In this document: positions 1-21,645 of the stretch, in pieces
Position numbering within the stretch: the stretch's first letter is position 1
Layout: every line of letters starts with the position of its first letter
Made by a program: the position numbers and the translations under genes
Source: a bacterium
Lineage (GTDB): Bacteria; Bdellovibrionota_C; UBA2361; CALJRW01
DNA length: 21,645 bases
Reading direction: 5' to 3'
Assembly: GCA_031385045.1 (NCBI GenBank)
Contig: JANNBC010000005.1
Span: forward strand, 1 to 21,645
Notes under the pieces: model-generated
Database searches by the model: none
What the model saw: the letters and a program-made list of their open reading frames with translations, nothing else
What the model was told of the DNA's origin: nothing

Positions 1-168
1 ACTGATAAAAACTTTTCCGCGATTAAATTCTCTTGCATTTCGATGAACCAAAATAAAGGTAATCATCATAAAATGCAGACAAATTATGCTCTTCGCAATT
101 AGTTAAAAAAGTAGATTAATTTCGATCACTTAGCTCTTCGAAAACAAAATTAGTATTACGAAGGTAAG

Positions 169-217
169 TGACATTCGTGCCAGGCAAGAGCTTGACATTC
201 GTGCCAGGCAAGAGCTT
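169..217. repeat. Perfect 24-bp tandem direct repeat (TGACATTCGTGCCAGGCAAGAGCT x2), REP-like, downstream of the RAYT gene
   Basis: Units at 169-192 and 193-216 are identical. Each contains the interrupted palindrome TGCC-A-GGCA. The minus strand reads CTTG-CC-TGGCA-CGAA-TGTCA (5-bp hairpin with one G-T pair). Confidence 0.9.
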
Positions 218-356: not shown

Positions 357-1322
357 CTAATTACGATGCTCAATTAGGTGGTGGAGCATTGGTAGTCTTG
401 GTGGAAATAAGCCTGCTGGGTATACTTCAGTGAAATCTCCTCCTAGAATACTTTGATATACTTCATTGGCATATTCACAAAGATTTTTTGCGTAATTAAT
501 AAATTGCTTTCTAAGCTCTCTGTTTCCAGTAATACACCACATTTTTCTGCCAGTCCGGTTTGGTTTGTATTTTAAGTCTATTCCTTGGTTCTCGAGTTTT
601 GCTCTTCCCATGAAATCAGTTTTTTCTTGATAGATTGCCGATTGAATTTCTTTGATCTTTTCATGGATGGTTTTATTGATTTTGTTTATTTCTGCAGGGT
701 CTTTGATCTTAAATGATTTCATCCAAGCATTTGGATTAAATTCAAAATTGCCTTTGGCTGGATTATCCTTAACTAGTAATTTGCGCATCTTCTCAAAGAA
801 AAGATGTCCTTTATCTTGGGGTATTTCAAAGAGGGAGTCGCGACGGATGTAGTTGCACTTCATCTTGAAAGTATTTGCTTTATAGTATTCCCATGTACTT
901 AGGCCTGGATACTTATTAATTGATTCTATTAATCCATCCTTGACTGGGTTGGTATAAAGATAAGCGATCTTATTGATGACATCTTCTCTGGTTAGAAGTA
1001 CTGGGGAGTCATATCTTTCGCACCACACAGTTCTTTTCTTTCTTCCTAAGATTCTATTTAGATAATGGGCTGATTCAGTTTTAAATCTTTCCATAAATTT
1101 TGGTAAATCTAGTGGGTTTTCAATTCTTACAATCATATGGATGTGAGTTCCATTGACTATGAAATGATTGATTTCTAGTGGGTGATGTTTGAAAGCTCTG
1201 ATTAAAGCGGACTTTAGAAGAAATTTCACTAGAGGATTTGCAGGCAACATGATTCCTTCTTCCACGCTGAGAGTTACGAAGTGGATCTGGTTGTTTAGTA
1301 TTATTTTTCTTAGGCGAGGCAT
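357..1322 (-). CDS. HUH/Y1 tyrosine transposase, IS200/IS605 superfamily, RAYT (TnpA-REP)-like, with C-terminal extension
   Basis: 321 aa; N-terminal MPRLRK..HFVT, HUH motif (NGTHIHMIV), VWCERYDS, catalytic Tyr in YLYTNPVKDGL, all typical of RAYT-type Y1 transposases. No adjacent tnpB. Confidence 0.85.
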   Translation of the reverse strand: MPRLRKIILNNQIHFVTLSVEEGIMLPANPLVKFLLKSALIRAFKHHPLEINHFIVNGTHIHMIVRIENPLDLPKFMERFKTESAHYLNRILGRKKRTVWCERYDSPVLLTREDVINKIAYLYTNPVKDGLIESINKYPGLSTWEYYKANTFKMKCNYIRRDSLFEIPQDKGHLFFEKMRKLLVKDNPAKGNFEFNPNAWMKSFKIKDPAEINKINKTIHEKIKEIQSAIYQEKTDFMGRAKLENQGIDLKYKPNRTGRKMWCITGNRELRKQFINYAKNLCEYANEVYQSILGGDFTEVYPAGLFPPRLPMLHHLIEHRN

Positions 1323-14075: not shown

Positions 14076-14103
14076 AATCTACCACAACATAATTCACTGT
14101 CAA
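14076..14103 (-). promoter_or_regulatory. Probable rho promoter, implying a ~315-nt 5' leader
   Basis: Minus strand TTGACA-N16-TAGATT with an extended -10 TG. Confidence 0.6.
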
Positions 14104-14153
14104 GAGCGAAGTTTAACCCGCATTATTCATCAGTGCACGTAGCGAGGAAAAGA

Positions 14154-14184
14154 TCCTTCTTCGCTAAAGCTACGACGGGACAAG
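14154..14184 (-). repeat. REP-like mini-hairpin, copy 1
   Basis: Minus strand CTTG-TCCCGTC-GTA-GCTTTAGC-GAA-GAAGGA. Confidence 0.7.
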
Positions 14185-14235
14185 AGTTTGGTTTCAGTTT
14201 GGACTAAAAAAGCACATTGAGACCGAGGTCTCACG

Positions 14236-14267
14236 CCTGCCTTGTCGTAGCCTTTGGCGAAGACAGG
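14236..14267 (+). repeat. REP-like mini-hairpin, copy 2 (inverted relative to copy 1)
   Basis: CCTG-CCTTGTC-GTA-GCCTTTGGC-GAA-GACAGG. Confidence 0.7.
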
Positions 14268-14285
14268 AGCATTTTTTCGTTCAAG

Positions 14286-14314
14286 CCACCTTCGCTTCGC
14301 TATGGCGATCCAAG
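14286..14314 (-). repeat. REP-like mini-hairpin, copy 3
   Basis: Minus strand CTTG-GATCGCC-ATA-GCGAAGC-GAA-GGTGG. Confidence 0.6.
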
Positions 14315-14452
14315 AATGGAGCCAAAATTCTTTTTCGTAGTAGTGCTCCCCCGATTACACACTGTAATTTTAAAAAATTTCTAAATCCCTCGTAAGTCAT
14401 CGGGATTAGAAAGAAATTTTATTTCTTTCTAATCACTGATGAATTATGCGGG

Positions 14453-15148
14453 TTAAGCACCCCTTGGTTCATTTAGCTTAACGGCAGCAACAGATCTCAA
14501 ATAATTTGGTTTTAAATTGGCAATTAAATCTAAAGAAAAATCGGGAATTTTGATTTGATTGATTGTTACTAATTTTAGCAAATTAGCACTCAAACAATTG
14601 TTTTTTTGGGGTATAAACTTGTCAAACAACTTAAGATCTAAATCACAATATACTTTTAAATCTGCTAAATTTAAGTTTAATTCTTGATGTTTTTGAGTTA
14701 AAAATCTTTCTAAATAATCTAACGTCATGATTTCTTCCTTATTCACCGAAGAAAGTTTCCCCTGCTTAACTTGATAAATCCCCGTAAAAAATTCATTGCG
14801 TCTAGCGTCTGTCAACACAACTTGCAGATTACTATCAGCATTTAAATTTGCCATTGCTTGTAGGCTAGAAACTTCCGTTACTGGAATTCGTAAGGCCATA
14901 GCAAGACCAGCAACAAATGAATAGCCGATACGAAGTCCAGTAAAAGATCCTGGCCCAGCACCTAGAATAATACTTTTTAGATTGGAGATCGGAATATTAT
15001 TAGCCTGCAGTAAATTATCTAATAGCATGGAAAGAGTTTCTATATGACTATTAGGATCCTTCGCTTCAATCGTAAAAACTTCTCCATGATCAGAGAGGAT
15101 ACTTAGGGAAGCAATTGGAGTGCTAGAATCAATAGCTAACTGCGCCAC
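14453..15148 (-). CDS. tsaB: tRNA threonylcarbamoyladenosine biosynthesis protein TsaB
   Basis: LAIDSST, GAGPGSFTGLRIG, DARRNE, C-terminal PNYLR; GTG start abutting the rseP stop. Confidence 0.93.
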   Translation of the reverse strand: MAQLAIDSSTPIASLSILSDHGEVFTIEAKDPNSHIETLSMLLDNLLQANNIPISNLKSIILGAGPGSFTGLRIGYSFVAGLAMALRIPVTEVSSLQAMANLNADSNLQVVLTDARRNEFFTGIYQVKQGKLSSVNKEEIMTLDYLERFLTQKHQELNLNLADLKVYCDLDLKLFDKFIPQKNNCLSANLLKLVTINQIKIPDFSLDLIANLKPNYLRSVAAVKLNEPRGA

Positions 15149-21329: not shown

Positions 21330-21645
21330 ATATACTAAGCGACATTGAAAATTACCGAAAAATACAAAGGCGCTTAGTATATCAAGTGCGAAGCACTTGA
21401 AGCGACCCTTGGGGGTCGCTAAAGTATTGAGCCTTATTTTATAAGGCTCAATACTGGGGAAGACAAATAGACTAAAACCCCAATGAACTAAAAATGCGAT
21501 CCGCATTTTTCCTAGCCGTTCGGTAAAACCTTGTATGTTGAAAAAGTTCTATTTATCTATAAATTTAGATAAACAAGTCCCTGGAGTAGTAGACCGAGAA
21601 AAACCTGTGTAAACGACACGACCATTAGATAGGTCACTACTCCAG
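21330..21645. repeat. Chain of inverted repeats/hairpins (structured ncRNA or MITE/REP cluster), runs to the window end
   Basis: Perfect stems at 21330-21382 (12 bp), 21382-21400 (8 bp), 21401-21420 (8 bp), 21423-21455 (15 bp), 21490-21510 (9 bp), 21552-21573 (8 bp) and 21581-21645 (10 bp). Confidence 0.8.

Follow-up and report, generated by a model that had tools for sequence, protein, structure and literature searches.

The window analysed here is the whole stretch of 21,645 nucleotides of contig JANNBC010000005.1 (assembly GCA_031385045.1), which belongs to a bacterial genome of the Bdellovibrionota_C lineage (G000, 94.9% complete). Between a promoter preceding rho and a tsaB-like gene, it carries a short non-coding element with terminal inverted repeats and with no ORF of at least 80 aa, namely a MITE that is interrupted by three mini-hairpins (Table 1). 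The initial annotation had described a TTAA-bounded terminal-repeat element containing a perfect 14-bp hairpin, and both features proved correct, coordinates included. The 23-nt inverted repeat with one mismatch (14113-14135 / 14434-14456) was also confirmed in the sequence; since its outer 4 nt, TTAA, represent the target duplication, the true terminal repeats of the MITE are 19 nt long and not 23.

Table 1. The MITE, its inserts and its immediate surroundings (positions in the window)
Feature	Position	Strand	Basis
Sigma70-like promoter upstream of rho, 10 nt from element end	14076..14103	-	10/12 consensus match; same hexamers in G001
Left target-site duplication TTAA	14113..14116		Single TTAA at empty orthologous site in G001; family-wide 4-bp YTAR duplication
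IS1380-type MITE, 336 bp (243-bp core + 93 bp of inserts)	14117..14452		5 two-ended copies in G000, more in G001
Left terminal inverted repeat, 19 bp	14117..14135	+	19/19 identical to right end of L071 IS1380-family element
Long imperfect host hairpin, broken by three inserts	14142..14338		Fold of stripped element and natural insert-free copy
Mini-hairpin insert 1, 31 nt, 4-nt tail	14154..14184	+	Exactly absent in G000:C53 and G001:C13, C63, C54; 31-nt skip in contigs of runs X3, X4
Apex hairpin of long host stem	14218..14233		Fold of stripped element
Mini-hairpin insert 2, 32 nt, preceded by GCT on the same strand	14236..14267	-	Exactly absent in G001:C63, C54
Mini-hairpin insert 3, 30 nt, 3-nt loop variant	14285..14314	+	Exactly absent in G000:C39 and G001:C13, C63, C54
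Short closing stem, right third	14348..14404		Fold
Perfect 14-bp hairpin	14404..14434		Pairing complete in two G001 copies despite different arm letters
Right terminal inverted repeat, 19 bp	14434..14452	-	One mismatch to left repeat
Right target-site duplication TTAA, contains tsaB stop codon	14453..14456		ORF 14453-15148 terminates here
tsaB-like gene, stop codon at insertion site	14453..15148	-	PF00814, E 4 × 10−22

The element is strongly folded (z = −8.0 vs 100 dinucleotide shuffles). When the inserts are removed in silico, 14185-14213 pairs with 14269-14328 to give one long stem, as the initial annotation had anticipated, and a natural insert-free copy in the same-genus genome G001 (G001:C63) folds like the stripped element; the empty alleles give the exact limits of the inserts and correct those proposed for the third one (about 14287-14316) to the values of Table 1. 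A search of the element against Rfam yielded five weak matches, all far below the gathering score, and no tRNA or tmRNA was found in the window. In two G001 copies (L007, L018), the 14-bp hairpin is perfectly paired despite several changed letters on both arms, the kept pairing pointing to selection on structure or to self-templated repair.

The boundaries of the element follow from the behaviour of its relatives. A 4-bp target duplication is perfect in 26 and has one mismatch in 23 of the 59 end pairs, which include a few spurious or overlapping rows, while a 5-bp rule fits 1/59 and a 3-bp rule 2/59. Three TTAG/TTAG and three CTAA/CTAA pairs among the perfect ones need a 4-bp duplication, so that TTAA is the duplicated target and the element starts with CCC. 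A 2-bp TA duplication with a symmetric terminal base, as in IS630-type MITEs, was suggested by three mismatched copies and is rejected on the same TTAG/TTAG and CTAA/CTAA pairs. The duplicated target holds the end of a long ORF in four of nine two-ended copies (window 14453, G000:C24, L007 and L009), at both ends in the case of C24.

Six loci were obtained when metagenomes were scanned for the terminal pattern. One of them (L071) is a complete 1,679-bp element encoding an IS1380-family transposase (NF033539, 340 bits, cut-off 180), and its right end matches the MITE repeat in all 19 positions; the same end stands behind a similar transposase tail in two others (L070, L072). The same-order genome G015 contains a further IS1380-family element (L044) with related ends and a TTAG/TTAG duplication. 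The initial classification as a DDE-type MITE with other copies was borne out. The identity of one 19-bp end to an IS1380-family element makes IS1380 the likely mover. The transposase profile PF13701 is present in 8/41 genomes and was not found in G000, G001 or G002, so the mover is one that we infer; mobilisation of the MITE by an IS1380 transposase acting in trans appears very probable.

The MITE itself is ordinary. Like IS1380-derived MITEs it is non-coding, has 19-bp ends starting with CCC and a 4-bp YTAR duplication, and often sits at stop codons; unlike them it carries hairpin passengers and has no cognate transposase found in its own genome. It shares no internal similarity with two full IS1380 elements beyond the ends. 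The name IS1380 does not occur in a MITE review (PMC10969869). G015 and G053 are rich in related IS1380-type MITEs (L176-L210) from families of ~57 and 175 bp, with 116 and 34 end matches, respectively, and their target duplication is mismatched in about half of the end pairs. In G015, mismatches affect 13 of 23 elements and 18 of 92 duplicated positions, a rate roughly double the internal divergence of seven long copies (10.5%). IS1380 transposases are distant relatives of piggyBac, according to excerpts of PMC10140906. A piggyBac-like carry-over of donor flanks as the source of the mismatched duplications was considered and found unsupported, ordinary decay explaining the mismatch in G015.

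Five two-ended copies of the MITE are present in G000. Their lengths, duplications included, are 344 nt for the copy in the window (C28), 313 nt for C39, 313 nt for C53, 146 nt for C17 and 83 nt for C24. Among the 41 genomes searched, further copies occur only in G001; the single match in G014 covers insert 1 alone. The orthologous site after tsaB in G001 is empty and holds one TTAA, as the initial annotation had hoped to find in a relative, and the site of C39 is likewise empty there, in a region too diverged for base-by-base reading. The copies differ in their passengers. All three inserts are present in C28, 1 and 2 in C39, 2 and 3 in C53 and only 2 in G001:C13, while G001:C63 and the truncated G001:C54 have none; the REP-free G001 copy measures 244 bp between its duplications. 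The alignment gaps at the insert sites are exact (31, 32 and 30 nt) and show no target duplication. The three hairpins were gained separately, as singles and without target duplication. Other copies exist, an orthologous site is empty and the hairpin positions are variably occupied, the three points on which the initial reading of nested mobile elements had been staked.

The order of the gains is complicated by insert 3. It is common to C28 and C53, yet the derived bases 14233, 14335 and 14378 unite C28 with C39 on both sides of it, so that C39 either lost the insert exactly, or a short conversion tract was involved, or the copy is mis-assembled. In the contigs of run X1, the C39 junction devoid of insert 3 lies on one 110-nt contig with a depth of 3.6 vs 9.2-9.6 in the flanks and ~30 nt on its short side, and several C39-specific bases were not seen in this run. 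An exact excision of insert 3 in C39 is therefore possible. In a contig of run X4, another hairpin variant leads into the right side of site 3. In run X3, a contig with a depth of 2.6 connects the flank on the tsaB side with a path that lacks insert 1; this contig, which may be a strain allele or a chimera, was left out of account. Because the copies share stretches longer than the assembly word, the assignment of inserts to copies may be affected by mis-joining.

Two further copies deserve mention. A 181-nt copy (L009, G001:C47:19647-19827) has the left side of site 1 joined to the right side of site 3 via one hairpin, the outcome expected if the DNA between inserts 1 and 3 was deleted. At G000:C39:13212-13346 (L218) there is a decayed remnant of the MITE's right third (79% identical), directly upstream of a GTPase gene which we take to be hflX-like, and this remnant may now serve as leader or promoter DNA.

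The mini-hairpin is a family of its own, dispersed and mostly extragenic. A simple motif gave 34 matches in G000 vs 1-2 in base shuffles, and a structural rule 54 loci vs 5 and 0 in controls; after merging and removal of six ill-formed matches there are 60 loci, of which 56 lie outside long ORFs. A stricter pattern detects the hairpin in 47 of 124 genomes from the phylum, with no control matches, and a related one at 17 viral-contig loci. The layout is that of an imperfect palindrome with a tag, a stem, an unpaired triplet and GC-loop-GC, the common tail CAAG being CTTG at the foot of the other strand. Exact filled and empty pairs without duplication were found for four other host repeats, with looser pairs for three more, and the step between filled and empty sites is a single unit of 30-33 nt. 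The hairpin is also nested in another copy of itself, in six cases in G000 and in seven among 100 fetched loci of other genomes. The proposal that one non-autonomous parasite targets another is not supported in the sense of specific targeting of this MITE: repeats make up 12.1% of the non-coding DNA and take about 9 of about 45 insertion events by hand count (p = 0.087), so the MITE is not a specific target of the hairpin. Specific targeting of repeats in general was dropped on the same figure, the hairpin entering other repeats, itself and unique DNA.

The recipient sites are more structured than expected, the rejoined flanks having a median z of −2.25 (n = 26 loci) vs −0.18 in 300 non-coding controls (p = 3 × 10−5). 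A preset rule whereby a stem begins at the 3′ junction failed on a first validation set (5/38 non-nested loci of other genomes vs 108/1500, p = 0.19), and enclosure of the junction by a hairpin was rejected as well (5/26 vs 25/300, p = 0.08). Separation of tailed from tail-less copies, a two-class rule devised after the failure of the preset one, gave the following picture. Copies with a CAAG-like tail (n = 53) are preceded by T at −1 in 38 cases, by C at −2 in 34 and by G at −3 in 29, while tail-less copies abut a stem of at least 8 pairs on the 3′ side in 19/36 cases vs 1/36 on the 5′ side (offset control, 8/89). In a held-out third set the T was present in 14 of 18 and the stem in 8 of 15 on the 3′ side vs 1 of 15 on the 5′ side. 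Within the window, only insert 2 obeys the GCT rule, the bases before inserts 1 and 3 being GA and AA, respectively.

A candidate enzyme for hairpin spread was sought among the gene neighbours. The initial annotation had assigned this role to RAYT transposases, an assignment that the neighbourhoods do not support: no hairpin lies near any of the 20 Y1/RAYT-like loci inspected (18 distinct genes, window 357-1322 included), vs 11 of 30 loci of a small GIY-YIG nuclease. In G000 this nuclease is a 79-aa protein encoded at C41:6403-6639, and a hairpin copy starts directly after its stop codon. Among the best 30 of 61 homologue matches, the motif lies no more than 250 nt from 11 genes (10/29 without G000), the other 19/30 loci having no motif by the rule used, and further from these 30 genes there were no matches in 48,609 nt. 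Genomes with at least five hairpin copies possess the nuclease in 10/13 cases vs 32/111 of the others (p = 0.001), and a RAYT-like gene in 13/13 vs 90/111 (p = 0.12; 103 of 124 genomes in all), both p-values overstating the case because kin genomes are not independent. For the query used, 26 of the 47 hairpin-bearing genomes have no nuclease homologue. None of the 17 viral-contig copies has a nuclease or Y1 gene within 700 nt.

The Tyr, Arg, His and Glu columns, which we take to be catalytic-type residues of the GIY-YIG protein, are invariant in 28 aligned sequences. The predicted fold (pLDDT 92) best matches At-HIGLE (E 4.5 × 10−4) and Slx1 (E 8.7 × 10−4), and a sequence search of the PDB with the nuclease returned no matches. 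GIY-YIG enzymes hydrolyse and do not join strands, a point against the nuclease as the agent of spread. Slx1, as described in excerpts of PMC6902002, cuts branched DNA near the branch point. In seven of the ten loci scanned (L077, L082, L086, L087, L088, L097, L062), the 3′ end of a tRNA or tmRNA gene is immediately followed by the GIY-YIG gene with its hairpins, and a short motif located ~20-45 nt before the start is common to many homologues; the arrangement suggests that the nuclease gene and hairpins form a small tRNA-linked cassette. The 321-aa Y1 (RAYT-like) gene at window 357-1322 is followed by a direct repeat of ~24 nt (window 160-215) which is unrelated to the mini-hairpin.

Taken together, the observations describe an IS1380-type MITE with three separately gained hairpins, and we give roughly even chances to the view that these hairpins spread on ssDNA by means of the Slx1-like GIY-YIG nuclease encoded elsewhere in the genome. 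In such a course of events, an IS1380 transposase would move the MITE in trans into the TTAA at the tsaB stop codon; the nuclease would bind the hairpin and nick ssDNA after a GCT-like sequence or at the base of a stem, and host repair would seal a hairpin copy into the nick. The long stem of the MITE would offer a good landing place, and subsequent transposition of the MITE would copy the passengers. That hairpin spread depends on this nuclease acting on folded ssDNA, with the host doing the sealing, is a proposition that might go either way, the link to the enzyme being one of association in sequence data. A bolder version, in which the single 30-nt hairpin is the mobile unit of an undescribed system where, with no transposase involved, the ~80-residue Slx1-like nuclease would drive both insertion without duplication, after GCT or at the base of a stem, and an occasional exact removal, is put forward tentatively and may well be wrong. 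If true, a nuclease-driven hairpin system would build Russian-doll repeats inside MITEs, other palindromes and itself.

The junctions alone favour an HUH enzyme, while the gene neighbourhood favours the GIY-YIG nuclease. It is conceivable, if somewhat unlikely, that an HUH transposase of the RAYT or IS200/IS605 type moves the hairpins by peel-and-paste and that the GIY-YIG gene is a passenger or a second user. Clean insertion without duplication, a constant 4-nt tag at one foot and the preference for GCT beside the other end resemble the HUH rules as far as these are given in excerpts of PMC6006769, and the arrangement of tag, stem, unpaired triplet and GC-loop-GC parallels the GTAG-3 REPs of PMC3733652 (excerpts). 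The apparent exact loss of insert 3 in C39 would fit as well, as would the wide distribution of RAYT-like genes, found in the window itself and in every hairpin-rich genome. Yet none of the Y1 loci inspected has a hairpin nearby, the Y1 protein of the window scores below the REP_Tyr_transpos cut-off (68 vs 80 bits), and three genomes (G006, G064, G120) have hairpins and the nuclease and no match to the RAYT-like query.

The spread might also proceed with no dedicated enzyme, through template switching and gene conversion at folded ssDNA during replication, the nuclease only recognising and maintaining the hairpins; we regard this as unlikely. The structured flanks of the insertions agree with it, self-nested copies show an A-A-B-B pattern which slippage could also yield, and a short conversion tract accounts for the presence of insert 3 in C28 and C53 despite the bases shared by C28 and C39. 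However, the inserts have a constant length and enter unrelated, non-homologous sequence, inner and outer copies can differ in variant (L261), and the GCT bias recurs across genomes. Very improbable is the idea that the three hairpins belong as fixed modules to a single structured RNA or element, the differing copies being assembly chimeras. The stretches shared between copies and the low depth of the C39 junction in run X1 speak for it, but each insert site is found unoccupied in two or more copies and also in a second genome, the same hairpin stands alone at dozens of sites, and no Rfam match comes near the gathering score. The idea is largely refuted by the REP-free copies, and clean junctions in copies lacking insert 1, insert 3, both or all three rule out fixed modules.

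Several traits attributed here to the hairpins and the candidate nuclease have precedents. Like REPs and REPINs, the mini-hairpin is an imperfect palindrome of 20-40 nt bearing an unpaired 4-nt tag; it forms clusters, lies mostly outside genes and inserts into other palindromes and its own kind. The nesting of REPs in other palindromes and in each other is already known (PMC3733652, PMC3116915, excerpts). The tag CAAG/CTTG of the mini-hairpin is neither the GTAG nor the CGTC of the two REP superfamilies; the families were compared by text description, and the hairpin may yet match one of those in PMC3733652. Unlike a REPIN it is gained as a singlet at empty sites and not as an inverted doublet, whereas REP singlets are treated as defunct remnants in excerpts of PMC3116915; unlike the REP-RAYT system it has no RAYT adjacency. 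CGTC REPs lack a dedicated transposase, according to excerpts of PMC3733652. With IS200/IS605 elements it shares insertion beside a short target without duplication, an HUH signature in excerpts of PMC6006769, as well as possible exact excision, and it differs in having one 30-nt hairpin instead of two ends, a loose target bias and no associated Y1 gene found.

The pairing of a small single-domain GIY-YIG gene with a dispersed hairpin repeat is likewise known from the Ssn nuclease and its NTS/SRM hairpins (Chenal et al. 2025, PMC11893778), for which the available excerpts hypothesise a mobile origin. The SRM search pattern nevertheless matches 0/54 hairpin loci and nothing in the element, the nuclease here has 79 aa vs 94 aa with a predicted fold closest to Slx1-lineage structures, and in the loci read the hairpin is mostly confined to one flank of the gene. 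In the literature searched, which covered few subscription papers, we found no description of the present hairpin-nuclease system. For the spread of short palindromic repeats with no known transposase, one candidate enzyme can now be named; spread by a small nuclease would be, if true, an unusual route for selfish DNA. The filled and empty alleles of multi-copy hosts reveal precisely which unit moves, where its junctions lie and what target bias it has, and the question of the enzyme can be tested with an 80-residue protein and short oligonucleotides.

Two further arrangements show the hairpin in other hosts. At G000:C2:180770-181358 (L216), tandem modules start with a tmRNA-like 5′ head, and in one module the mini-hairpin fills precisely a site that both others have empty. 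At the right end of the window (21439-21561) another family of palindromic repeats is represented by an empty copy; elsewhere in the genome this family carries the mini-hairpin in its loop.
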